This document shows, one piece after another, positions 5,316 through 25,896 of a stretch of 31,841 bases of DNA. Source of the stretch: a virus (Duplodnaviria; Heunggongvirae; Uroviricota; Caudoviricetes); IMG/VR virus record IMGVR_UViG_2558860161_000007, positions 1 through 31,841 of that record; one strand, given 5' to 3'. The notes under the pieces are model-generated. The model worked only from the letters and a program-made list of their open reading frames with translations, was not told where the DNA came from and did no database searches. Position 1 is the stretch's first letter. The number at the start of each line of letters is the position of its first letter. Both the position numbers and the translations under genes were made by a program.

Positions 5316-5828
5316 TCAGTTTGCTCCCTGTAAACACCAGGCCATCTCCCGCGCACGGCGGTTATCCAGCCCCTGATTAAACACACCTTTCACATAAACC
5401 CAGCGCGGCAACTGTCGGCACGCATCCGCCCAGCGCCGCTGATTGAGTAATTTCACCAGCGTGGAACTGCAGGCATTGCCCGTTCCCACGTTGAAGGCAA
5501 ACGACACCGCAGCGTCATATACCTTCTGCGGCGGCTGTTGTTTCACACACCTTTCCAGCGCCCGCTCCACACGCAGCACGTTGGAAATCAGTCCTTCTGC
5601 TGCCTGTCGTTCCGTAATGGTTTTGCCGGGAATGACGCCTGACGTGTTACCAATGCCGTCGGTCCAGACGCCCGCGCTGCACTGATACGGCTGCAGACGA
5701 CAGCCTTCGTAATCGGCAATCAGTTTCAGCCCCTCCACGGAGGTGTGAAGCTGCTGAAACCCCGGCAGCGTGGCAGCAATAGCCAGCACGGCCCCGACAA
5801 GGCAGCGTTTAACGATTGATGGATTCAT
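5316..5828 (-). CDS. K: Endolysin, phage lysozyme (T4-lysozyme/GH24-type), with a hydrophobic N-terminal segment (possible SAR anchor)
   Basis: 170-aa ORF; lysozyme-like core (YEGCRL.PY.C.AGVWT.GIGNT) and N-terminal Gly/Ala-rich hydrophobic stretch; position after the holin. Confidence 0.85.
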   Translation of the reverse strand: MNPSIVKRCLVGAVLAIAATLPGFQQLHTSVEGLKLIADYEGCRLQPYQCSAGVWTDGIGNTSGVIPGKTITERQAAEGLISNVLRVERALERCVKQQPPQKVYDAAVSFAFNVGTGNACSSTLVKLLNQRRWADACRQLPRWVYVKGVFNQGLDNRRAREMAWCLQGAN

Positions 5829-6024
5829 AGTCCTCCCGCGAGATCTGCCCGTCGCGCAGAAGCTGGTAGGCTTTGTGTTTGTAGTACCAGTTGATAGCCA
5901 GCATCAGCACACCAATCATCAGGCCGCCCAGCGTTGAGGCATCCTTGATGGACAAATCGCCCAGCCAGGCCAGCACAACGGCGATGCAGTACGTGATAAA
6001 GGCGCTGATTCGCTCAAGCGTCAT
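5809..6024 (-). CDS. Y: Holin (P2 gpY-like)
   Basis: 71-aa protein with two hydrophobic helices and a charged C-terminus, immediately upstream of the endolysin. Confidence 0.7.
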   Translation of the reverse strand: MTLERISAFITYCIAVVLAWLGDLSIKDASTLGGLMIGVLMLAINWYYKHKAYQLLRDGQISREDYESINR

Positions 6025-9495: not shown

Positions 9496-11262
9496 ATGAA
9501 CACCACACTGACACCCGCAGATCTCGATCCCCGTCGGCAGGCCATGCTGCTGTACTTTCAGGGATACCGCGTCGCCCGCATTGCTGAAATGCTGGGCGAG
9601 AAAGTTGCAACCGTTCACAGCTGGAAAAAACGCGACAAGTGGGGTGACTATGGGCCGCTGGATCAGATGCAGCTCACCACCGCCGCACGCTACTGCCAGC
9701 TCATTATGAAGGAGCACAAAGAAGGGAAAGATTTCAAAGAAATTGACCTGCTGGCGCGCCAGTCGGAGCGCCACGCGCGGATCGGCAAGTTTAACAATGG
9801 CGGCAACGAAGCCGACTTAAACCCTAACGTCGCCAACCGCAACAAAGGCCCGCGCCGTCAGCCGGAAAAGAATGTTTTCACCGATGAGCAGATTGAGAAG
9901 CTGGAAGAAATCTTCCATTCCTCCATGTTTAACTACCAGCGCCACTGGTGGGAAGCCGGAAAAACCAACCGCATCCGCAACCTGCTGAAGTCACGCCAGA
10001 TCGGCGCGACCTTTTACTTTGCCCGTGAAGCCCTGATTGACGCTCTGCTTACCGGACGTAACCAGATTTTTCTTTCCGCCAGCAAGGCACAGGCTCACGT
10101 CTTTAAGCAGTACATCATAGACTTCGCCAAAGAAGTCGAGGTGGAGCTGAAAGGCGATCCGATGGTGCTTCCTAACGGAGCCACGCTTTACTTCCTCGGC
10201 ACCAATGCCCGCACGGCCCAGAGTTACCACGGCAACCTGTATCTGGATGAATATTTCTGGATACCGAAATTCCAGGAACTGCGCAAAGTTGCCTCCGGGA
10301 TGGCCATTCACAAGAAATGGCGACAAACCTACTTTTCCACGCCGTCCAGCCTTACCCACAGTGCCTATCCGTTCTGGTCCGGTGCGCTGTTTAACCGGGG
10401 CCGCGCCAAAGCGGACAAGGTGGATATTGACCTGACCCACAGCAATCTTGCGCGCGGCCTGCTCTGCCCTGACGGACAGTACCGCCAGATCGTCACCGTG
10501 GAGGATGCGGTGCGCGGCGGCTGTAACCTGTTCGACCTCGACCAGCTGCGCATGGAGTACAGCCCGGACGAATACCAGAACCTGCTGATGTGCGAATTTA
10601 TTGACGATTTGGCGTCAGTATTCCCGCTCAGCGAACTGCAGGCATGCATGGTGGACAGCTGGGAAGTCTGGACCGATTTTCAGGCTCTGGCGCTGCGCCC
10701 GTTTGGCTGGCGCGAGGTCTGGATCGGATACGACCCGGCGAAAGGCACGCAGAACGGTGACAGCGCCGGGTGCGTGGTGGTGGCACCGCCAGCCGTGCCG
10801 GGCGGCAAGTTCCGCATTCTGGAGCGACACCAGTGGCGCGGGATGGACTTCCGCGCCCAGGCTGACGCCATTAAAAAACTGACGCAGCAGTACAACGTGA
10901 CATACATCGGTATCGACTCGACCGGCGTTGGTCACGGGGTTTATGAGAACGTGAAAGCGTTCTTTCCTGCCGTGCGGGAGTTTGTCTACAACCCCAACGT
11001 CAAAAACGCCCTGGTGCTCAAGGCCTACGACATCATCAGCCACCGCCGTCTGGAGTTTGACGCCGGACACACTGACATTGCGCAGTCATTCATGGCAATC
11101 CGTCGCGCAACCACCGCCAGCGGCAACCGCCCGACCTATGAAGCCAGCCGCAGCGAAGAAGCCAGCCACGCCGATCTGGCCTGGGCAACAATGCACGCAC
11201 TGTTTAACGAACCGCTGCAGGGCGAATCCGCCAATACCAGCAATATTGTGGAGATTTTTTGA
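9496..11262 (+). CDS. P: Terminase large (ATPase) subunit P (P2 gpP-like)
   Basis: 588-aa ORF, nearly the P2 P length; Walker-A-like KSRQIGAT motif; overall resemblance. Confidence 0.9.
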   Translation: MNTTLTPADLDPRRQAMLLYFQGYRVARIAEMLGEKVATVHSWKKRDKWGDYGPLDQMQLTTAARYCQLIMKEHKEGKDFKEIDLLARQSERHARIGKFNNGGNEADLNPNVANRNKGPRRQPEKNVFTDEQIEKLEEIFHSSMFNYQRHWWEAGKTNRIRNLLKSRQIGATFYFAREALIDALLTGRNQIFLSASKAQAHVFKQYIIDFAKEVEVELKGDPMVLPNGATLYFLGTNARTAQSYHGNLYLDEYFWIPKFQELRKVASGMAIHKKWRQTYFSTPSSLTHSAYPFWSGALFNRGRAKADKVDIDLTHSNLARGLLCPDGQYRQIVTVEDAVRGGCNLFDLDQLRMEYSPDEYQNLLMCEFIDDLASVFPLSELQACMVDSWEVWTDFQALALRPFGWREVWIGYDPAKGTQNGDSAGCVVVAPPAVPGGKFRILERHQWRGMDFRAQADAIKKLTQQYNVTYIGIDSTGVGHGVYENVKAFFPAVREFVYNPNVKNALVLKAYDIISHRRLEFDAGHTDIAQSFMAIRRATTASGNRPTYEASRSEEASHADLAWATMHALFNEPLQGESANTSNIVEIF

Positions 11263-12305
11263 TGAGTGAACCCGAAGCCTTAACCAGCACAACGCTAACA
11301 GAAGCTACGGCACCGAAAAACACAGGCGTAAGTGCCGAGGCTTTCAGCTTTGGCGATCCGATCCCGGTACTGGACCGCCGCGAGCTGCTGGACTATGTGG
11401 AATGCGTACAGATGGACAGATGGTATGAACCGCCGGTCAGTTTTGATGGGCTGGCTCGCACCTATCGCGCCGCCGTACATCACAGCTCACCGATTGCCGT
11501 CAAACGCAACATTCTGACCAGTACATTTATCCCACATCCATTACTGAGCCAGCAGGCATTCAGCCGCTTTGTGCAGGACTATTTGGTGTTTGGTAACGCT
11601 TATCTGGAGAAACGAACGAACCGGCTCGGCGGCATTCTGTCGCTGGAGCCATCGCTGGCGAAATACACCCGCCGCGGGATCGACTTAGACACCTACTGGT
11701 TTGTGCAATACGGTCTAACCACGCAGCCCTACGAGTTCACTAAAGGCAGTATCTTTCACCTGATGGAGCCGGACCTGAACCAGGAAATTTACGGCCTGCC
11801 GGAATATCTGTCCGCCATTCCGTCCGCCTTGCTGAACGAGTCCGCTACGCTGTTCCGGCGTAAATACTACATCAATGGCAGTCATGCAGGGTTCATCATG
11901 TATATGACCGACGCCGCGCAGAACCAGGAGGACGTGAACAACATCCGCCAGGCCATGAAAAGCGCCAAAGGGCCAGGGAACTTCCGCAACCTGTTTATGT
12001 ACTCGCCGAACGGTAAAAAGGACGGCATCCAGATCATCCCGTTATCGGAGGTTGCGGCGAAAGACGAGTTTCTGAACATCAAGAACGTCAGCCGCGATGA
12101 CATGATGGCAGCGCACCGCGTACCGCCGCAGATGATGGGTATTATTCCCAACAATACCGGCGGCTTTGGTGATGTGGAAAAGGCCAGCCGTGTCTTTGTT
12201 CGCAACGAGCTGATGCCGCTGCAGAAGCGACTGCAGGAGCTTAACGACTGGCTTGGCGAAGAAGTGATCCGCTTCGAAGCCTACACATTAGATGTTCAGG
12301 AGTAA
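11259..12305 (+). CDS. Q: Portal protein Q (P2 gpQ-like)
   Basis: 348-aa ORF overlapping the P stop (ATGA); size and synteny as in P2. Confidence 0.9.
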   Translation: MMSEPEALTSTTLTEATAPKNTGVSAEAFSFGDPIPVLDRRELLDYVECVQMDRWYEPPVSFDGLARTYRAAVHHSSPIAVKRNILTSTFIPHPLLSQQAFSRFVQDYLVFGNAYLEKRTNRLGGILSLEPSLAKYTRRGIDLDTYWFVQYGLTTQPYEFTKGSIFHLMEPDLNQEIYGLPEYLSAIPSALLNESATLFRRKYYINGSHAGFIMYMTDAAQNQEDVNNIRQAMKSAKGPGNFRNLFMYSPNGKKDGIQIIPLSEVAAKDEFLNIKNVSRDDMMAAHRVPPQMMGIIPNNTGGFGDVEKASRVFVRNELMPLQKRLQELNDWLGEEVIRFEAYTLDVQE

Positions 12306-12355: not shown

Positions 12356-12694
12356 TCAGCAGACGGCATATACACCATCAAATCCAACAGAAGGCACCTT
12401 CTTTGATGCTACTTCATTGCTACGACGCTGGATCACCTTTGCAATACTTTTTAAAATTGAAGGGGATGCATTGCGAACCTTTACCTGGCTCAAAACTTTG
12501 GTTACGCCGAATTTCACAACCAAAACACCAAAGATTTCATCAGAGTATGATTCTGAAATTGAATAAACGCCGCTCAAATCCAAATCAACAAAGTTCCCCT
12601 CATTGATGAGAACTTCAATCTTGTGCCGTTGGGGGATAGCCTGATTGCGCGAAGCCAGGTCACCCTCGGGCAACTTGTATGCAATTTTATTCAT
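12356..12694 (-). CDS. Small STAS-like (anti-sigma-factor-antagonist-like) protein; second gene of a two-gene cargo operon
   Basis: 112-aa ORF; segment FVDLDLSGVYSISESYSDEIFGVLVVKFG resembles the STAS/SpoIIAA-type core; AGGAGG Shine-Dalgarno inside the end of the upstream gene, and its start overlaps that gene's stop. Confidence 0.55.
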   Translation of the reverse strand: MNKIAYKLPEGDLASRNQAIPQRHKIEVLINEGNFVDLDLSGVYSISESYSDEIFGVLVVKFGVTKVLSQVKVRNASPSILKSIAKVIQRRSNEVASKKVPSVGFDGVYAVC

Positions 12695-13815
12695 TACTCT
12701 CCTCCTAACGCCCGCATGATTTCCATAAGTTGAGGGTCATTTTCTTCGTTATCGTAATCTTTATCGATCGCCAGTTCATGAATCTTAAAACGGCATGAAA
12801 TTGCCACACCTGACCACTCTTTATGCAATTCAGTGTAGCTCAATTGATCACCAACTGCCTCTAAGCATACATTTCCTGTAGCCAGTTGCAATTCCCCGTT
12901 GTATGTTTTTACCAATTTCATCAAGTGATATAGACCAAGCCCTTGATGATTATTCTCTTTTTCTTTAACTGCTACCGGAACACTTGCACCAAAGACGCTT
13001 CCACCCATATTGTCATACGGCAATTGCTGTGCCCAATCATCTATCAGATCAGCATGTTTAGATGAGTTACCTTCTTGTATACACCATGCTATGGCATCAC
13101 GATGATTGTCAATTCCTTTGATGCCTGCGCGCCTTAACTCTCTAAAAAACCCCATGCCACAGTCTGCAAGAGCAAACTCAAGATAATGCTCTTTTCCACC
13201 GGTTCTTGGTACTGCCCATTTTTGCGCAAAAGAAAAACCGGTATCCCTACCATGCGACCAGACGTTGTCGTGTAACTCACCAACCACACGTGTGAGATCG
13301 TTTATCCCTTGAGGATAAACCTTCCTCTCAGGGAATGTTAATTGCCTAATACAGCTATTTATACTTGAAGTAGCTGAATCGACTGCTTCAACATTCTTCA
13401 GAGCTGTCACAAGGCTGTAGTTGGTTCCGACATTAACTCTTTTTTGGTCATAACGGTCTTCCCCCCAAACAGCTTTGTGCAGACCAATGGCATTCATGTA
13501 ACCTGCGCCAGGTAAGTTGCAAGCATCTTCTGACAGCTTATTGTGATTTATATAAGCAGCCAAGACAGCAATATAGCCAGGGTGACAATGGTCATTCGGT
13601 AAAAGCAATTTCCCCTCACCACGATCATGAAATATAGCAATGCGGTGAATACCATCTTTTAGACCAAATCCCATTGACCAATCTCCACGAAAAATTTCCC
13701 CTATAATATCGCCTGGGAAAACTGAGCGCAAAGTAAAGCACTTAACCAAGCTTGCGCGCGCTCGTATCCCCGCCACGCCTGCCCGCTTTATGTAGTGGTT
13801 TTCATGCACCTGCAT
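12694..13815 (-). CDS. GHKL-superfamily (histidine-kinase-like) ATPase domain protein; first gene of the two-gene cargo operon
   Basis: 373-aa ORF with N-box-like VVGELHDNVWSHG, G1-like LADCGMGF and G2-like HQGLGLYHL in canonical order. The first ~27 codons overlap the cos-like site; an alternative start at Met48 (~13674) has a GGAG Shine-Dalgarno. The region is lower in GC than flanking phage genes. Confidence 0.6.
   Translation of the reverse strand: MQVHENHYIKRAGVAGIRARASLVKCFTLRSVFPGDIIGEIFRGDWSMGFGLKDGIHRIAIFHDRGEGKLLLPNDHCHPGYIAVLAAYINHNKLSEDACNLPGAGYMNAIGLHKAVWGEDRYDQKRVNVGTNYSLVTALKNVEAVDSATSSINSCIRQLTFPERKVYPQGINDLTRVVGELHDNVWSHGRDTGFSFAQKWAVPRTGGKEHYLEFALADCGMGFFRELRRAGIKGIDNHRDAIAWCIQEGNSSKHADLIDDWAQQLPYDNMGGSVFGASVPVAVKEKENNHQGLGLYHLMKLVKTYNGELQLATGNVCLEAVGDQLSYTELHKEWSGVAISCRFKIHELAIDKDYDNEENDPQLMEIMRALGGE
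13761..13800. other. cos-like site (cohesive-end region) of the P2/186-type prophage
   Basis: Reverse complement reads GGCGTGGCGGGGATACGAG, resembling the 19-nt P2/186 cohesive-end core as I recall it; the flank is homologous to two repeats in the satellite (24567..24640, 24878..24960). Confidence 0.5.
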
Positions 13816-13983
13816 GATCTACGCAAAAGCCCACCAGTTCTGGCGGGCCTTAGCAAAAACGATCCTCAAACGATCATGCGATCTCATGCGGCATAGACAT
13901 GCACTACAGAGCTAACGCCTCGCAAGGGCTCGTTGTTCAACCTTGCTGACGCCAGAAACAAGTTCAGACGCCAGCAACGTTTC

Positions 13984-14569: not shown

Positions 14570-16984
14570 TTAATACAGGTTTCGCCACTTATCATCTTCC
14601 TGCAAACGCTGGTTCCGATAGAAGATACGCAGGCCTGCTCCTGACGGAATACTGCCGCCGCGAAGGAGTAAATCGACCTCTTTCTCGCTACCATCAAACC
14701 CTCTGGACTTCAGCTCATACACGAGCTGCTGTCGCTGATGGTCTGTAATTCGCTGTTTGTAGTCTTTACGCCGTTTCGGTTTAACCAGGTGTAACCTTGC
14801 TGCCAGTTCCCGGCGTTCTTTTTTGCTCATACTGTGCAGGTAATCGTGCAACTCCTTGTCATCCATGCGGGTGATATCCGTTCTGGTATCCCCATCAGCT
14901 GATTTGTCTTTCCCTTGTTGGTTCAAATTTTCAGCAAGGGGACAGTTATTGCCACGAGTCCAAGGGGCGCAAGCGCCCTGGTCGGCTGCCGCCTCCTGAA
15001 CGTCAACGGCCTTACGAACCATTTTCCACTTCACTGCATGAGTGCAGATCTTGCCCTCTGCAATGGGTGACCAGATGCCATAAATACGAATACCGTGATC
15101 GCCATAGGCGGTTGGCTCTTCGTTGATTTCATAAGCGGTTCTGATGAGGTGATATTTGCGGGGAACCAGTACGCCGCCCTGCTTCATGATGTAGGTGGCA
15201 AAACAACCAGCATCAGCAGCAGCCAGGATGGCATCAAGGCGCGGGTTATCCAGTACCGGCGCACCTGCTTTTTTGTCCCCCTTTTGCCTTGCCGCCTGAC
15301 CAGCCAGCAATCGCAGTTCACGGTAAGCCTGACGCCCCGGAATGCCAAAGAAGCGGAATTGCTGAACACGATGCAAAGACGCCCAGGCATTCACGTATTC
15401 AGCGTTATCACGCAGAGATTTACCCGTTTCCTTGCTGATCTCGCCAGCCAGACCACGCCCGTCAATGTTCTTACTGATGTATTTCGCTATGTAGCTTGTC
15501 GGCGTTCCTTTGCGCGGGTTAATCAGCTCAGACTTAAAGCGCGGCCCCGTGTTATTGCCCAGCTCCTCGCGGTCTTCACGGATAGCAAACTTACGCAACA
15601 ATGCTGTAATGGCGCGGCGGTCTTTTTTGCGCATGAAACACAACAGGTGCCAGTGAACTGTGCCGTCGTGATGCGGCTCAGCCACCCGCACGCCATACCA
15701 GCGCAACCCGGCTTTGTGCATCGCCTTACGAAATGCAGCAAACATACCGACCAGATAATCGCTGCTTTGTCTTACCGTCGCATTTGTCCAGGTCGGGTTG
15801 GGCCTGCCGTTGTTGAGCGTGGAATGGAAACGTGACGGACAGGTGATAGTGTAGAAAACGGCGCAGTCACCGCGCATTTCCGCGATAAGCTCCAGACCTT
15901 TAACACAGGCCATCATCTCATTGCGGCGATGCGCAGGGTTGCTGCTGCTGGCGTTTACCACATCCTCCATGTCCAGCGTGTCGCCGTCTTCGTTCACCAG
16001 TTCATGAGAACGGAAAAACTCCAGCGACTTACGGCGCTGCTCACGTTTATGCATCACGGCTTCATAGCTGACATAGGGAGATGCTTTTTTGCTGACCAGG
16101 CAGACAGCACGCAACTGCTCTTCCCGCCATTCGCAACGCATCTTCCATAATTTCCGATACCACCAGTCGGCGCACAGCATACGCGCCAGCGAACCCGGAA
16201 TGAGTTCATAGGGCACGGGTTTACGGCGGTTTCTTTTCCGACGGAGTTGCTCAAACGCAGGTGGGATGACATCCAGACGCAGGGTTTCCGCCGCCACCTT
16301 TTCCCATGTCTTGCGGATTTCTTCTGGCTTAACGTCATCGGTGGCATACAAATCGCCACAAGCTGCATCAAGGCACATGCTCATATGCGCAGCTACCAGG
16401 GTGGACAGGCGTTTCACCTGATCCTGACTCATTTCAGGCAGGATCAGCAGGCCCTCCAGCCCTTGATGGCTTGCCATAAAACGGAAAGAAGCAGACAGCT
16501 GACTGTCACGTACACAATCCAGTCGCTCCAGACATGGCTTAATCGTCTCACGCAAATAGCGGGAATAAGCCTTTGGCCTGCCCAGGCTGCTGAAGTATTC
16601 GATACGTTGCATCAGCGGCTTGCTGATATGGGAAGGCTGGGCGCTGACGTCCGCCAGAATGACCATGTCCGGGTTAAAACGCTGCTGTTCATGCGCCAGC
16701 TTTGCCCGGCTAATGAGCTTATCCTGCTCCATTTCGCGCTGGACAGGATCACGAGATTCATTAAAGAAATAACGCTCCCAGACCTGCTCACTCAGTGCAT
16801 CGCGGCACAGCTGTTCCTGCTCATTATCGGCAGCGTACAGAGTGATCAGGTTTAAAAGTGCAGACTCCGGAGCAACTTCCGCCGGGTCCAGATAAGGGTT
16901 AATGGCCTTTTTCGGGCCGTTCCATGAAAATGCTGCAGCGGCCTCGTTAAAGCCGCTAGAGTTGCTCATATCGTCATGACTCAT
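14570..16984 (-). CDS. A: Replication initiation protein A (rolling-circle endonuclease, P2 gpA-like)
   Basis: 804-aa ORF; HWHLL-type motif ([10 protein letters not shown]) and general resemblance to P2/186 A. Confidence 0.9.
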
Positions 16985-20419: not shown

Positions 20420-21445
20420 ATGACCATCAGAAAACAGCCGAACGGAAAGTGGTTATGTGAATGCTACCCAAACGGGAGAGATGGCAAACGCGTACGCAAA
20501 CAATTTGCGACGAAAGGCGAAGCCATTGCGTTTGAGAATTTCACCATGGATGAGGTAAACAAGAAACCTTGGCTGGGAGAAAAGGAAGATCGGCGACAAC
20601 TGTCAGAAGTGATTGAGCAATGGTATTCCCTGTACGGTCAGACACTCGCTGACCCTAAGCGATTAATGGCTAAGTTAAAAATCATTTGTAATGGACTTGG
20701 CGATCCCATCGCTTCTGAATTGACAGCAGGTGATTTCACAAAGTACCGGGAAGCCAGATTAAAAGGTGAGGTCAAAAACGAAGATGGCGTGCTCATGTCA
20801 CCGGTTAAGCCCAGAACGGTGAACCTTGAACAGCGTAACCTATCCTCAGTTTTTGGCACACTGAAAAAGCTGGGACATTGGTCTGCACCCAACCCCCTCG
20901 CCGGTCTGCCAACTTTCAAAATTGCAGAAGGTGAACTGGCGTTCCTTGCTGCTGATGAAATCAAACGCCTGCTTGACGCATGTGCTGAATCTCAAAGTCC
21001 CAGTCTGCTAATGATTGCCAAGATTTGCCTGGCTACCGGGGCAAGATGGAGCGAAGCCGAAAACCTGCAAGGTAACCAGATATCAAAGTATCGAATTACC
21101 TATACCAAAACAAAAGGAAAGAAAAACCGAACTGTTCCTATTTCTCAGGAACTGTATGAAGAATTACCCAAAAACAGAGGAAAGTTATTCACACCATGCC
21201 GAAAGGCTTTTGAGCGTGCGGTAAAACGAGCTGGAATTGAACTACCTGAAGGTCAATGTACCCACGTTCTGCGCCACACTTTCGCCAGTCACTTTATGAT
21301 GAACGGCGGAAACATTTTGGTATTGAGGGATATTTTAGGACACGCTGATATTAAAATGACCATGATTTATGCCCATTTTGCACCGGATCATCTGGAAGAT
21401 GCCGTTACCAAAAATCCACTTCATAACCTCAACTGGCATCGCTAA
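20420..21445 (+). CDS. int: Tyrosine integrase (P2/186 family)
   Basis: 341-aa ORF; C-terminal catalytic region HVLRHTFASHF...LGHADIKMTMIYAH with the conserved R, H-x-x-R and Y; adjacent to the att core. Confidence 0.9.
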   Translation: MTIRKQPNGKWLCECYPNGRDGKRVRKQFATKGEAIAFENFTMDEVNKKPWLGEKEDRRQLSEVIEQWYSLYGQTLADPKRLMAKLKIICNGLGDPIASELTAGDFTKYREARLKGEVKNEDGVLMSPVKPRTVNLEQRNLSSVFGTLKKLGHWSAPNPLAGLPTFKIAEGELAFLAADEIKRLLDACAESQSPSLLMIAKICLATGARWSEAENLQGNQISKYRITYTKTKGKKNRTVPISQELYEELPKNRGKLFTPCRKAFERAVKRAGIELPEGQCTHVLRHTFASHFMMNGGNILVLRDILGHADIKMTMIYAHFAPDHLEDAVTKNPLHNLNWHR

Positions 21446-21562: not shown

Positions 21563-21607
21563 ATGTAGGAATTTCGGACGCGGGTTCAACTCCCGCCAGC
21601 TCCACCA
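21563..21607 (+). other. ssrA: Attachment-site core identical in character to the 3' end of tmRNA (ssrA), ending ...GGTTCAACTCCCGCCAGCTCCACCA
   Basis: The ~45-nt atgtaggaatttcggacgcgggttcaactcccgccagctccacca matches my recollection of the enterobacterial tmRNA 3' terminus; upstream is AT-rich phage DNA and the int stop, so only a 3' fragment is present. Confidence 0.65.
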
Positions 21608-21642
21608 AATAATGATCCGGATGTGTCCGGTGAAGTACAGAA

Positions 21643-21677
21643 AGCCCGCATGGCACAAGCCCTGCGGGCTTTTTTGT
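21643..21677 (+). terminator. Rho-independent terminator (likely the native ssrA terminator)
   Basis: Perfect stem agcccgca / tgcgggct with a 12-nt loop, followed by TTTTTTG. Confidence 0.6.
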
Positions 21678-21791: not shown

Positions 21792-22991
21792 GTGGCACGG
21801 ACAACTCGCCCCCTAACCAACACCGAAGTTCTGCGCGCGAAAGCGTTAGAGAAGGATCTAACGCTGCATGATGGTGATGGGCTTTTCCTGATAGTGAAAA
21901 CTAGCGGCAAGAAACTCTGGCGCTTTCGCTATCAACGCCCAGCAACAAAACAACGGACTATGATGGGACTTGGTGCTTTTCCTGCCCTTTCTCTTGCTGA
22001 TGCCCGAGGGTTAAGAGCAGATTACCTTGCCCTATTAGCCAACGGAATCGACCCGCAAATTCAAGCTGAAGTTGCAGAGGAACAGCAGCAAATCGCTCTG
22101 GACAGTATTTTTTCGACGGTCGCCGCTAACTGGTTCCAGCTCAAAAGCAAAAGCGTTACCCCTGATTACGCTAAAGATATATGGCGTTCACTGGAAAAAG
22201 ACGTATTTCCAGCTATCGGTGAGACCCCTGTCCAGCAAATCAAAGCCCGAACACTGGTTGAAGCCCTTGAACCGATCAAAGCACGTGGGGCGCTGGAGAC
22301 AGTTCGTAGACTGGTACAGCGTATCAACGAAATAATGATTTATGCGGTTAACACTGGCTTGATTGATGCCAACCCCGCATCAGGTATTGGTATGGCTTTT
22401 GAGAAACCCAAAAAGCAAAACATGCCGACGTTGCGACCAGAAGAATTGCCTAAGCTGATGCGTTCGCTAGTCATGTCAAATCTATCTGTTCCGACTCGCT
22501 GTCTTATTGAGTGGCAACTCCTGACGCTCGTGCGCCCTTCTGAGGCTTCAGGTGCTCGATGGGCTGAGATCGATCTCAATGCCAAACTCTGGACAATTCC
22601 AGCCGAACGAATGAAAGCTAAACGTGAACATATAGTACCTCTATCTACACAGGCGTTAGAGATTCTAGAAGTGATGAAGCCAATCAGTGCTCATCGCGAA
22701 CATGTTTTTCCGAGCAGGAACGACCCCAAAAAATCAATGAACAGCCAAACGGCAAACGCTGCCTTAAAACGCATAGGCTATGGAGGTAAGCTTGTTGCTC
22801 ATGGTCTACGTTCTATAGCGAGTACAGCTCTTAATGAAAATGGTTTTAATCCAGATGTAATTGAAGCAGCATTAGCACATTCGGATAAGAATGAAGTAAG
22901 ACGTGCATATAATCGTTCTACCTATTTAGAACAACGTCATGAGTTAATGAATTGGTGGGGTTGTAAAGTTTGCCCTACCAATTCATTATAA
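21792..22991 (+). CDS. int: Tyrosine integrase (P4/CP4-57 family) of the satellite element
   Basis: 399-aa ORF (GTG start); N-terminal arm-binding-type region (GDGLFLIV...KLWRFRY) and C-terminal catalytic region (AHGLRS...ALAHSDKNEVRRAYNRSTY). Confidence 0.9.
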   Translation: MARTTRPLTNTEVLRAKALEKDLTLHDGDGLFLIVKTSGKKLWRFRYQRPATKQRTMMGLGAFPALSLADARGLRADYLALLANGIDPQIQAEVAEEQQQIALDSIFSTVAANWFQLKSKSVTPDYAKDIWRSLEKDVFPAIGETPVQQIKARTLVEALEPIKARGALETVRRLVQRINEIMIYAVNTGLIDANPASGIGMAFEKPKKQNMPTLRPEELPKLMRSLVMSNLSVPTRCLIEWQLLTLVRPSEASGARWAEIDLNAKLWTIPAERMKAKREHIVPLSTQALEILEVMKPISAHREHVFPSRNDPKKSMNSQTANAALKRIGYGGKLVAHGLRSIASTALNENGFNPDVIEAALAHSDKNEVRRAYNRSTYLEQRHELMNWWGCKVCPTNSL

Positions 22992-23002
22992 GATAAAACA
23001 GA

Positions 23003-24421
23003 TCATACTTTACCGGGGTATGTTTTAAACATACTCCTTAATACGTCAAATGTCTGTTCACCTATGATTGAAAATTCTTTAATCATTTCCATTAAGTTAT
23101 TTCGGCTAATCAAGAAAATATACAAACCTTGATCTTTCGATATTTCTTTCACTCTATCAAGATACTTTTCCTCGGCAGAATTTTCGCAGAATATTAAACC
23201 TATCTTAGAATTACATTCTTCGACTTTTCTAAGTGTAGTATAAATATGTTCCTCGTTCAATTTATGCTGAGGATCAATGACATTTACAACTATCAACTCT
23301 GAAATAATGTTGTACACTGAAAAATCGAAAAAGAAACCTTTCTTAGCCTCATTAATTAATGAAAAGAGGCAGCACTGTTCATCCTCACTTATTAATTTGG
23401 GGTAAAACAAGCTAGGATAGAAGATTGAAATCAATATTTTCTTGTATGCTTTAGTGTAATTACTAAAGTCGTTGTTTTTAATTGATAAATCAATATCTTT
23501 CATTAGATCTTTTATGGGGAGAATTACAGGATCTTCATCCTTATCAAAATCACTATGCGCTAGAGGATTCGGAGGATTAATCTCCAGCTCTTTTTTATAT
23601 TCTTTCAAGGTGTTAGGGTATTTTACGAGCTGAGACTCGATAAATCCCTTAGTCTGACCATACTCATCAATGATACTTGTTGTGGTAACAATCCGCTCCC
23701 CTTTAAGCACTTTAACTAATGCCGAGCCAGAGCTTATCAATTCCTTTTTCATTTCCGGAATAATATGCCTCCGATATAAATCCCTATGTGAATAGATTAT
23801 CTCTTCACGTGCAAGTATCTTAGGAATAAGGATAATCTCCTCGCCTTCATAAACAGGGAGATGAAAACGATTTTTATGCCATTTACTACTAACCTTATCC
23901 CACGTTTTGACTTCTGAAACCTCTTTAGTCTCAATGCCGTAAAATATACAAATATCCTTTGTATATTCTATAAAAAAACCTTTGAGAATATTACAAACTG
24001 AATCCGATATTCGGTCAGAACCAATACCTGGGATAGTCAGAGCTGTATCTTCTAGATCAGTTAATATTCCTGATTTTGCAGCCTGACTACTCTTTAGAGA
24101 ATCCAAAATATCTTCAGCAGTTTTTTCACCAAGAGCAGTTCCGGATGATTCTTTTGTTGAATATCCTAAATGAAAGGCATTGGTCTCTCTTAGTGATGAC
24201 AATAAATAAGCAGCTTTTTTAAAATTATTATTCTTTATAGACGCCATTATTTCTGTAAAATAGTCTTGTAACGCGTAAACTAAATCCTGCCCCCATTGGG
24301 ATTTTAAAACCTTTATAGATGTTGGATCTAAAAAAAACCTTAAATCAGTATGCAGAGGAATATCCAAAAAATCTAACGCTACTTGTCTGCCTTCAACTCC
24401 AAAAGCCTCTGAAAACCTCAT
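23003..24421 (-). CDS. Hypothetical AT-rich cargo protein (~472 aa) in the satellite int-cos hotspot
   Basis: ORF 23003..24448; likely start is the ATG at ~24421 with a GGAG Shine-Dalgarno. GC is markedly lower than its neighbours, it is convergent with int, and I recognise no domain by eye. Confidence 0.55.
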   Translation of the reverse strand: MRFSEAFGVEGRQVALDFLDIPLHTDLRFFLDPTSIKVLKSQWGQDLVYALQDYFTEIMASIKNNNFKKAAYLLSSLRETNAFHLGYSTKESSGTALGEKTAEDILDSLKSSQAAKSGILTDLEDTALTIPGIGSDRISDSVCNILKGFFIEYTKDICIFYGIETKEVSEVKTWDKVSSKWHKNRFHLPVYEGEEIILIPKILAREEIIYSHRDLYRRHIIPEMKKELISSGSALVKVLKGERIVTTTSIIDEYGQTKGFIESQLVKYPNTLKEYKKELEINPPNPLAHSDFDKDEDPVILPIKDLMKDIDLSIKNNDFSNYTKAYKKILISIFYPSLFYPKLISEDEQCCLFSLINEAKKGFFFDFSVYNIISELIVVNVIDPQHKLNEEHIYTTLRKVEECNSKIGLIFCENSAEEKYLDRVKEISKDQGLYIFLISRNNLMEMIKEFSIIGEQTFDVLRSMFKTYPGKV

Positions 24422-24566
24422 GTAACACTCCTTTACAATAATCAACATAAAAACAAGAGCATTCTTATTTTTATAGCAAAGGTGGTTTAATCACAAGATC
24501 TTATGAATTGAGCAACAATAATTATCCCTATTTTTTGAAGCTGACGAACATTTCACGTTGCGTACA

Positions 24567-24640
24567 GAGCTTTCCCCGCCTCGCCTGCACGCCTCGTGGG
24601 TCTGTTTTAATGCAGTTGCTTTGCGAGGCTCAGGCTGCCA
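24567..24640. repeat. cos-like repeat copy 1 (P2-type variant)
   Basis: Reverse complement reads GGCGAGGCGGGGAAAGCTC; homologous to copy 2 and to the helper cos-like region. Confidence 0.5.
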
Positions 24641-24877
24641 CAGACTCGAATACGTCAAGGGAATAGCAGCTTTAGAAGCGACGTAATGAACGCCAGAATG
24701 ACTAGTTTCCTCCACCGCCGGGCGGCCTTTTCTTGCACTTCTCCTGACCACCTCAGGGCTCTCCACGCCCTCGAACAGCACCGCACCACCCACCGACACT
24801 CCCGAGAACCCGCGCAGTACAGCGACGCACTCAGGCCGCGAAATTAAATATAATTAAATACTTTACCGCTGGCGCGC

Positions 24878-24960
24878 AATGCTCTCCCCGCCACGCCTGC
24901 CCGCTTCCCGGGGCGCTTTTAATGCAGGTGCATGAAGAGGCTCAGGCCGCGCCAGTGCTG
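24878..24960. repeat. cos-like repeat copy 2 (variant closest to the resident helper)
   Basis: Reverse complement reads GGCGTGGCGGGGAGAGCAT; the flank (ctgcccgctt...ttttaatgcaggtgcatga) aligns with the helper region at 13761..13815. Confidence 0.5.
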
Positions 24961-25061
24961 GTGCGACAGAGTGTGGAAAATTCAGGGTTTTGCATGCAAA
25001 GCCATGCAGCGTAGGCATGCATGGCTATTTTTATTAAAAAGACGGGTATTTTCGGGGCGTT

Positions 25062-25637
25062 TTATGCGGATTTTTTGCGGGTCTGCGCGGCCTGTCGGCG
25101 CATGAAAATCTGACTCTGTTCAGGCGTATATTTTGCCCGGTTGTCGTCTCTCGATGCTCTGTCAGGCCGGAAACCGATGGTTGTCAGAATGTCGCGATCA
25201 TCCTCTGCGTAATCAATATTTCCTCCGCGGGTTACATAAACGGACAGCGCTTCGCGAACACTGGCGGCCGCCCGGTCGAGAGCACGTTCTCTGACAATGT
25301 CAGGTTGTTCGCTGAGATGCATTAATTCCGGTGCCAGTGCGGCGGCCAGCGCGTCGCCGCTTACCTGCATAAAGGCGTGGAGCTGACACCGGATACTGAT
25401 ACGCTGCACGGCCTCATGTGACCGGATGTACTGCCCGGCCGACTGATTTACCGCCCATTTTTTCAGGTCAATATCATCCCGCAGCGCCTGTGCGGCCTCC
25501 GGTTCATAACGGGTGCAGGTCAGCTCCAGCTCCTTCAGCGCCATTTCTGCCCGCGCCAGTGCTGACTTGCTGCTCATCCAGTCCGATTTATTCTTCTGAC
25601 AGGTTTCAAAGGCCTGTTCCAGTAGTGCTCGTGCCAT
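25062..25637 (-). CDS. psu: Psu-like polarity suppression / capsid decoration protein
   Basis: 191-aa ORF; conserved AGQYIRSHEAVQ.ISIR and ILTTIGFRPD segments, as I recall for P4 Psu (190 aa). Confidence 0.8.
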   Translation of the reverse strand: MARALLEQAFETCQKNKSDWMSSKSALARAEMALKELELTCTRYEPEAAQALRDDIDLKKWAVNQSAGQYIRSHEAVQRISIRCQLHAFMQVSGDALAAALAPELMHLSEQPDIVRERALDRAAASVREALSVYVTRGGNIDYAEDDRDILTTIGFRPDRASRDDNRAKYTPEQSQIFMRRQAAQTRKKSA

Positions 25638-25653: not shown

Positions 25654-25896
25654 TCAGTGGCGCAGCGATGACCGGGCGCAGTCCAGAATTCGGGGCGGTG
25701 TTTCTGGTACTGTTTGTGGTGGTTCGGGCTTTTCTTCTGCCGGTGGCCGTATCACCTCGTCGATAGACTCGGTGGTGCGAAAGGTTGCGGAGCAAAAGAC
25801 ATTCACGCACTGGAGGTAGCTCTGTTTGACGTTATCTGACAGGTAACGGCTGGTACGGACATGGGCAGCCTGTTTGCAGTACGGGCAGCGCATCAT
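25654..25896 (-). CDS. delta: Delta/Ogr-family zinc-finger late transcription activator
   Basis: 80-aa ORF starting MMRCPYC with CPYC...C..C..CSATF, the hallmark of Ogr/Delta. Confidence 0.85.
   Translation of the reverse strand: MMRCPYCKQAAHVRTSRYLSDNVKQSYLQCVNVFCSATFRTTESIDEVIRPPAEEKPEPPQTVPETPPRILDCARSSLRH

Follow-up and report, generated by a model that had tools for sequence, protein, structure and literature searches.

A P4-like satellite with a presumed working cos and a probable fossil cos copy beside a captured helper arm

Introduction

The closest described counterparts of the locus reported here are the cos sites of P2, P4 and 186 (Ziermann & Calendar 1990, as cited in the available text of PMC9122126, PMC9594776 and PMC5694545), with a 55-bp core of the P2/P4 cos being cited in PMC9594776 and PMC5694545. 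The records of P4 and P2 both contain the cohesive-end sequence GGCGAGGCGGGGAAAGCAC, and positions 1-19 of the phage 186 record, GGCGTGGCGGGGAAAGCAT, are annotated as cohesive end, so the published ends quoted in the preliminary description of this DNA are right.

Directly beside cos, in P2 as well as in P4, Rousset et al. 2022 (PMC9122126) place a hotspot, and in the available text cos is speculated to drive exchange. The accessible parts of this paper, of de Sousa & Rocha (PMC8628076) and of a 2026 NAR article (PMC13586616) describe neither a duplicated cos nor a captured helper left arm, and within the searchable literature neither duplicated or vestigial cos sites nor captured helper arms turned up for P4-like satellites. 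As the source of the rapid cassette swapping, recombination at cos has so far been speculation only. In phiCTX, ctx lies between cos and a Q-like gene. In 186-related prophages, the interval from cos to the portal terminator can be exchanged for other DNA (Dodd & Egan 1996, as referenced in the available text of PMC5694545). Direct repeats of cos as such have precedent. The classical cos duplications of lambda are engineered, yielding chromosomes with two identical and functional sites.

Here we analyze a window of 31,841 nucleotides (IMG/VR record IMGVR_UViG_2558860161_000007), which holds most of a P2-like prophage and then, in tandem, a P4-like satellite, as judged from Pfam matches and gene order. 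Two cos-like repeats lie between psu and the defence cassette of the satellite, hereafter cos1 (cassette side) and cos2 (psu side). As in P4, P2 and 186, cos2 combines a 19-nt G-rich end with a core of ~55 bp and GCATG repeats; it is psu-adjacent, as in P4, and the helper cos lies between gene A and the portal gene, as in P2 and 186. The 19-mers themselves (...AGAGCAT for cos2, ...ATACGAG for the helper cos) differ from those of the type phages. Moreover, while P4 has a single cos with a left side unrelated to helpers, here ~230 nt of helper-like arm and a mutated second cos are present. The cos-to-tW/portal interval is likewise an exchangeable arm in 186-related prophages and phiCTX, yet there the carriers are helper phages, whereas here the copy sits in a satellite. 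With the two-cos chromosomes of lambda the locus shares the direct orientation of the sites and the question of which of them starts and ends packaging; unlike those, the sites here are diverged, 312 bp apart, and one is without recognition elements.

Results

Pfam matches in the helper prophage comprise the gpO scaffold, gpP terminase, gpQ portal and gpA replication proteins, as well as an integrase ending at 21445; with these genes and a cos between A and Q, it is a P2-like (Peduoviridae) prophage. The terminase large subunit (gpP-like; Terminase_6N, Terminase_6C and Terminase_5) occupies 9496-11262 and the portal gene (gpQ-like; Phage_portal) 11259-12305, both on the plus strand, while gene A (Pfam) is at 14570-16984. 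The helper cos 19-mer, GGCGTGGCGGGGATACGAG, is the reverse complement of 13761-13779, with letters exactly as given in the preliminary description, and is flanked by CGCGCGC at 13754-13760. In the satellite, psu, delta, the sid position, integrase and the alpha primase-helicase follow the order of the P4 record, with Pfam matches to Psu, Ogr_Delta, Phage_integrase and primase/D5 domains; the open reading frame at the sid position returned no match in the Pfam search. The integrase (21792-22991, plus strand; Phage_integrase and Arm-DNA-bind_3) is followed by the cassette gene (23003-24448, minus strand; 481 aa, 33% GC), a candidate defence gene matching PADLOC PDC-M36A (2.8e-32) and DUF8370. 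Beyond the repeats lie psu (25062-25637, minus strand; Pfam Psu 1.3e-69), the late gene adjoining cos, with a product 51% identical to P4 Psu, then delta (25654-25896) and alpha, which extends from 29508.

Between the P2-like and satellite integrases, at about 21572-21607, there is a copy of the ssrA (tmRNA) 3' end (...GGACGCGGGTTCAACTCCCGCCAGCTCCACCA), indicating that the tmRNA attachment site took up helper and satellite as a tandem. Another contig, L277, has the same satellite beside a different integrase-bearing island rather than this helper. Just inside the attachment end of the satellite, positions 21598-21675 gave a weak partial Rfam match to the IsrM sRNA (39 bits, far under the gathering score), overlying DNA that resembles a hairpin terminator.

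The two cos-like repeats form one direct-repeat family of 84 nt (24560-24643 and 24872-24955) with 75% identity and a spacing of 312, agreeing with the two ~80-bp homologous repeats ~310 bp apart that had been described initially. Their reverse complements contain GGCGAGGCGGGGAAAGCTC at 24567-24585 (cos1) and GGCGTGGCGGGGAGAGCAT at 24879-24897 (cos2), again with the letters first given. A 92-nt cos profile built from other sites, with cos1 left out, gave scores of 85.0 bits for cos2 (E 3e-24), 65.4 bits for the helper site (E 4e-18) and 48.6 bits for cos1 (E 7e-13). The repeats also align to the P2 and P4 cos regions, part of the comparison first proposed for them; cos1 spans the full 55-bp core and is 89% identical to P2 over 55 nt. 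The two-copy stretch recurs in the independent JGI contig L277 (99.94% over 3595 nt) and in SKEM01001445.1 (L295; 99.99% over 9781 nt), and Logan contig L278 spans cos1 at 100%. Beside both copies, a simple terminator scan flagged a weak hairpin plus T run.

To the psu side, the last 166 nt of P4 (11458-11623), which start where psu ends and include the right cohesive end, align with window positions 24899-25064, and cos2 thus occupies the P4 cos position. Its 19-nt cohesive-end sequence (24879-24897, minus strand), the presumed staggered terminase cut site, fits the core GGCG[A/T]GGCGGGGA...., and the right-end and left flanks conform to AAGCGGGC[A/G] and [T/C]GCGCGC, respectively; the left flank of cos2, TGCGCGC (24872-24878, minus strand), is kept in 81 of 88 satellites. 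The right-flank core (24898-24955, minus strand; ...CATGCACCTGCATTAAAAGCGCCCCGGGAAGCGGGCA) is part of the P2/P4 '55-bp core', according to the alignment of P2, P4 and ST147 and to a profile of 167 sites. This pool of presumed functional sites (136 distinct) comprises the psu-side copies of satellites, the 75 helper-lineage copies and the cos of P2, P4 and ST147-VIM1phi7.1. Over 102 nt cos2 matches the satellite consensus, inside the range of 0-1 mismatches of functional sites.

Between cos2 and psu, ~95-135 nt on the right-end side of the former, a cluster of GCATG-type repeats (24990-25025) has 5 words in the interval, with repeats and palindromes detected. Of 89 psu-proximal sites, 88 have at least four ATGCA/TGCAT words at -62 to -170, while most random stretches of 108 nt have 0, and P2, P4 and the helper lineage carry the same kind of cluster. 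Resembling a terminase small-subunit binding array, the cluster is a candidate part of the terminase recognition signal.

Congruent with a conserved role, GGCGTGGCGGGGAGAGCAT plus TGCGCGC is identical at 26 of 26 positions in all 9 closest genome relatives (Psu 83-97% identity), among whose genera are Intestinirhabdus, Tenebrionibacter, Citrobacter and Kluyvera, and the distance from psu to the cos2-type site is near-constant, at ~168 nt in 7 of the 9. With the cos profile, none of these 9 genome relatives has a second cos-like site, and cos1 is absent from them as well as from 3 IMG/VR relatives with Psu of at least 83% identity. Taken together, the P4 position, the conservation in 9 of 9 relatives, the flanks and the GCATG repeats support the earlier suggestion that cos2 is probably the functional site; we infer that it is the genuine working cos of the satellite, presumably cut to 19-nt 5' ends.

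All 75 relatives of the helper that have sequence in this region (portal at least 88% identical) possess a single site with a 19-mer ending TACGA[G/T], almost always GGCGTGGCGGGGATACGAG plus CGCGCGC. Against the helper cos, cos2 matches at 15 of 19 positions of the 19-mer and 45 of 60 of the core, no closer than P2 and P4 (14/19 and 45-46/60), with cos1 at 13 of 19; the proposed match between cos2 and the adjacent helper consequently fails. The flanking motifs that had been pointed out as common to cos2 and the helper are truly shared, yet they are not specific, occurring in all functional cos sites, and it is cos1 that departs from them. Among 88 psu-proximal sites taken from genomes and IMG/VR, the cos2 19-mer is the commonest satellite type with 49, and the P2/P4 type comes next with 31 (the genome-contig scan with Psu gave 9 loci, and the denominator thus derives mainly from IMG/VR), and the ...TACGAG type of the helper occurs in none of these 88 sampled satellites. 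A further P2-like lineage has the exact cos2 type as its own cos: 13 of 78 IMG/VR loci with the exact cos2 26-mer adjoin portals that share 77-85% identity with the ST147-VIM1phi7.1 portal.

As separate observations on these elements, contig names place the helper lineage and GAGCAT-type satellites together in at least 2 other isolate genomes, once on one contig, and the 38-kb record IMGVR_UViG_2786546178_000003 (L117, L228) combines a helper-lineage prophage with a psu-adjacent GAGCAT-type cos, which may be a tandem like that of the window. Essentially every P2/P4-family cos examined has an array of GCATG-type repeats, three to four in number at intervals of about 10-12 bp, located ~95-135 nt from the cut towards the right end; examples are 24990-25025 in the satellite, 13875-13905 in the helper and 11500-11530 in P4 (L004).

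Turning to cos1, the 19-mer (24567-24585, minus strand) is of the P2/P4 type with the change A18T, thus 18/19 to P2/P4, and keeps the first 13 nt of the core intact; every one of the 136 distinct presumed functional sites has A at position 18. In succession with its flanks, the site reads GAGGCGTGCA, GGCGAGGCGGGGAAAGCTC and TGTACGC. The last of these, the left flank (24560-24566, minus strand), is mutated relative to [T/C]GCGCGC, where C+3 is invariant in 136 of 136 sites and G+4 is present in 135 of 136. The right-flank core (24586-24643, minus strand), homologous to 24898-24955, has A-8G at an invariant column. The flanks hence deviate at the invariant columns -8 and +3 and also at -4 and +4. 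Among the 36 columns that are at least 97% conserved in the pooled sites, cos1 shows 6 mismatches, three of which (A-8G, A18T and C+3T) fall at 100% conserved columns; the 136 distinct presumed functional sites have 0 mismatches in 116 cases, 1 in 18, 2 in one and 7 in one. Beyond the right-flank core, no GCATG-type words are found at -62 to -170, because the DNA on that side is helper-like spacer. Departure from consensus does not prove inactivity, as at 9 of 52 conserved columns the satellite consensus is not matched by the helper's own, presumably functional, cos. We regard cos1 as a probably non-functional or at best feeble duplicate, with residual activity compatible with its letters.

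The spacer between the repeats (24644-24871, minus strand) is homologous to the stretch from cos to the portal terminator of P2-like phages; over 153 nt it shares 78% identity with the left end of Klebsiella phage ST147-VIM1phi7.1, to which helper-like arms in satellites are 72-82% identical. The annotation of phage 186 has a matching layout, with cos, the terminator tW and the portal gene W. At 24713-24735 on the plus strand, a GC-rich hairpin plus T run was read from the sequence and aligned with L003 and 186 as the portal-terminator homologue; this hairpin is not among the calls of the simple terminator scan. For a remnant of the portal 3' end at 24644-24705, nhmmer gave E values of 0.002-0.007 in L032 and L031 and no match in the window, and we retain this feature as no more than possible.

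Copy number of cos in related satellites, which had been suggested as a comparison at the outset, was assessed in 81 satellites with at least 600 nt beyond cos. Helper-like arms are present in 15 of the 81, and a second cos occurs in 9 of the 15 with an arm versus 0 of the 66 without (Fisher p = 2e-8, which overstates independence as the loci are related). One satellite lineage, with Psu about 56% identical to that of the window, regularly has the arm, and includes elements in E. coli 63-2, T28R, TL012 and PKF8. L006 and L007, of the window's own Psu lineage, carry a different arm (5760-5930), 79% identical to the cos-to-tW left end of 186 and lacking a second cos, indicating that helper left arms have been captured more than once.

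By the cos profile, cassette-side copies in relatives score 22-56 bits, versus 65-87 bits for psu-side copies, and range from perfect (L031) through point-mutated, as in the window, and copies with an indel or several core changes (L025, L001, L024 and L032) to barely recognisable ones (L002, GACGTGGCGTGGTAAAGCAC; L027 and L022), with the psu-side copy intact in every locus of this decay series. L294, like L031, has a second copy that seems fully intact, so second sites need not be dead. Furthermore, whether a second copy is P2-like or GAGCAT-like does not depend on the type of the primary copy. Two intact cores at a spacing of about 293-323 nt, the only range scanned, were found in 1 true satellite among 2.9 million IMG/VR contigs and at 7 loci of metagenome records, one being the window's own element; the other 7 of 8 IMG/VR matches were unrelated GC-rich pentamer repeats and were discarded. 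In E. coli PKF8 (L001 5123-5974), an IS1 separates the helper-like spacer from a degraded cos-like site (TGTGTGGCGGGAAGAGCAT+TGCGCGC) on the cassette side.

Comparisons along the locus indicate that the satellite is a mosaic, with a similarity break at the primary cos, cos2. On the psu side it shares 94-98% identity with L006, L008 and L014-L016, which are without the spacer, and similarity to L006-L014 stops at 24853-24872, the left edge of cos2; the spacer in turn shares 74-89% identity with satellites that reach only 66-68% in psu. In the metagenome contigs L289 and L293 the primary cos is of the P2 type, and identity to the window on the psu side is only 73-77%; they share the window's left arm (int, cassette, cos1 and spacer) at 91-94% identity and the very cos1 allele, 19/19 and with TGTACGC. 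As the same cos1 allele and arm thus sit on a different backbone, the mutations of cos1 predate the transfer, in which cos1 was a passenger. With L289, a low-divergence block of about 22500-24720 (roughly 1-5 per 100 nt, locally up to 11) contains the cassette and cos1 and ends inside the spacer, as seen in a sliding profile. We also considered constraint on the cos1 core, which diverges from L289 at 2 of 84 positions versus 29 of 233 in the spacer (p = 0.005), and rejected it: cos1 sits within this larger recent block, so the low divergence is not evidence of selection, nor does it locate a breakpoint at cos1. Megablast of 22990-24660 against 5,426 complete E. coli genomes gave no match to a cassette donor.

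The variable cassette between cos and int is a feature shared with the cos-adjacent hotspots described in the available text of PMC9122126, de Sousa & Rocha (PMC8628076) and the 2026 NAR article (PMC13586616), and likewise the similarity of relatives breaks exactly at the left edge of cos. The helper lineage has such a hotspot too. Its cos-to-portal distance (L095-L174, IMG/VR) varies from about 195 nt to >3.5 kb, placing the hotspot on the portal side of cos, as in satellites, whereas that of P2 is on the gene-A side.

Discussion

The reading that we consider likely is that the satellite carries one functional cos and, in cos1, a recombination fossil behind a captured helper arm. A P2-family terminase would recognise the cos2 region and make a staggered cut, leaving 19-nt 5' ends; the mature DNA would then run from cos2 through spacer, cos1, cassette and int round to psu, with cos1 remaining internal, about 290 nt from the mature left end. 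Regarding the origin, an ancestral satellite may have recombined with a P2-like helper at the only sequence they share, the cos core, to give a cointegrate with two direct cos sites, from which a deletion would leave psu, cos, the helper left arm up to the portal terminator, a second cos and the cassette. The cassette-side copy, being unneeded, would decay differently among descendants, and the left arm (spacer, cos1, cassette and part of int) would finally have reached the backbone of the window by a crossover at the primary cos. Cutting at both sites would generate ends mismatched at 4 of 19 positions, and functional loss of the extra copy would thus be tolerated or even favoured. Cointegrate formation plus deletion is one of several routes to the same product, illegitimate recombination included. 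The initial view of cos1 as a relic remains the best reading, whereas its attribution to a former helper specificity does not, as the evidence ties cos1 to recombination and arm capture.

Aggregated, the fossil copies and arms suggest that cos is the recombination point of these elements. These findings fit the proposal of Rousset et al. (PMC9122126) and the left-arm replacement of Dodd & Egan 1996. Decaying cos copies and helper arms would be the traces left in the sequence when satellites recombined with helpers or with other satellites, the breakpoints lying at cos; surveyed in thousands of elements, this marker can serve to reconstruct exchanges. At the locus itself the practical upshot is ordinary: one working cos, and a probable pseudo-cos for which annotation as a packaging site would be wrong.

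Alternatively, cos1 may remain uncut and nonetheless be useful, either as a cos-homology landing pad for cassette swaps that spare cos2, or as a terminase-binding decoy or regulator. Independence of second-copy and primary type among loci with the same arm is what one expects if cassettes bring or overwrite the second copy, and cassette and cos1 do share one recently exchanged block. In the one pair examined closely, however, the block boundary at about 24720 falls within the spacer rather than where cos1 ends; moreover, a single cos suffices for cassette swapping in 66 of 81 satellites, and the decay series speaks against constraint. We consequently deem a role of this kind unlikely.

It is rather improbable, in our estimate, that both sites are functional, cos1 serving P2-type helpers and cos2 those of the 186 or GAGCAT type. 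cos1 does keep GGCGAGGCGGGGA intact, is 18/19 to P2/P4 and covers the entire 55-bp core, and the second copies of L031 and L294 have perfect 19-mers and flanks. Set against this are the missing GCATG repeats, the three changes at columns invariant in 136 sites, the closest relatives with cos2 alone, the clear degradation of most second copies and the mismatched ends that cutting at both sites would produce. In addition, P4, which has a P2-type end, can reportedly use 186 as helper (Sauer et al. 1982), implying that A or T at position 5 is no specificity barrier, again contrary to two sites with separate helpers. A related and equally improbable idea is that arm-capturing satellites keep a periodically renewed cassette-side cos, as an alternative P2-type packaging site or a dedicated cassette crossover point; if true, defence cassettes could shuttle between satellite and helper without risk to the working cos.

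That cos1 is the working site and cos2 the relic is highly improbable: the sole point in favour is the closeness of cos1 to the P2/P4 19-mer, while cos2 is invariant in relatives, sits at the P4 position and has all conserved elements, and cos1 is absent from the closest relatives. Finally, chance similarity or an assembly artefact can practically be discounted, given the profile E value of cos1, the identical arrangement in the independent assemblies L277 and L295, and homologous two-copy loci in E. coli genomes and IMG/VR.

Preferring the reading of a single working cos with a fossil copy, we conclude with minor features of the helper region. Between its cos and portal gene, at 12356-13700, the helper harbors two low-GC genes, presumably a hotspot cassette. 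The first, of about 327-373 aa, gave no match in the Pfam search, and the second, of 112 aa, matches DUF4325 (STAS-like). The helper open reading frame listed as 12694-13815 overruns the cos 19-mer, and its real start is therefore probably an internal Met near 13677.
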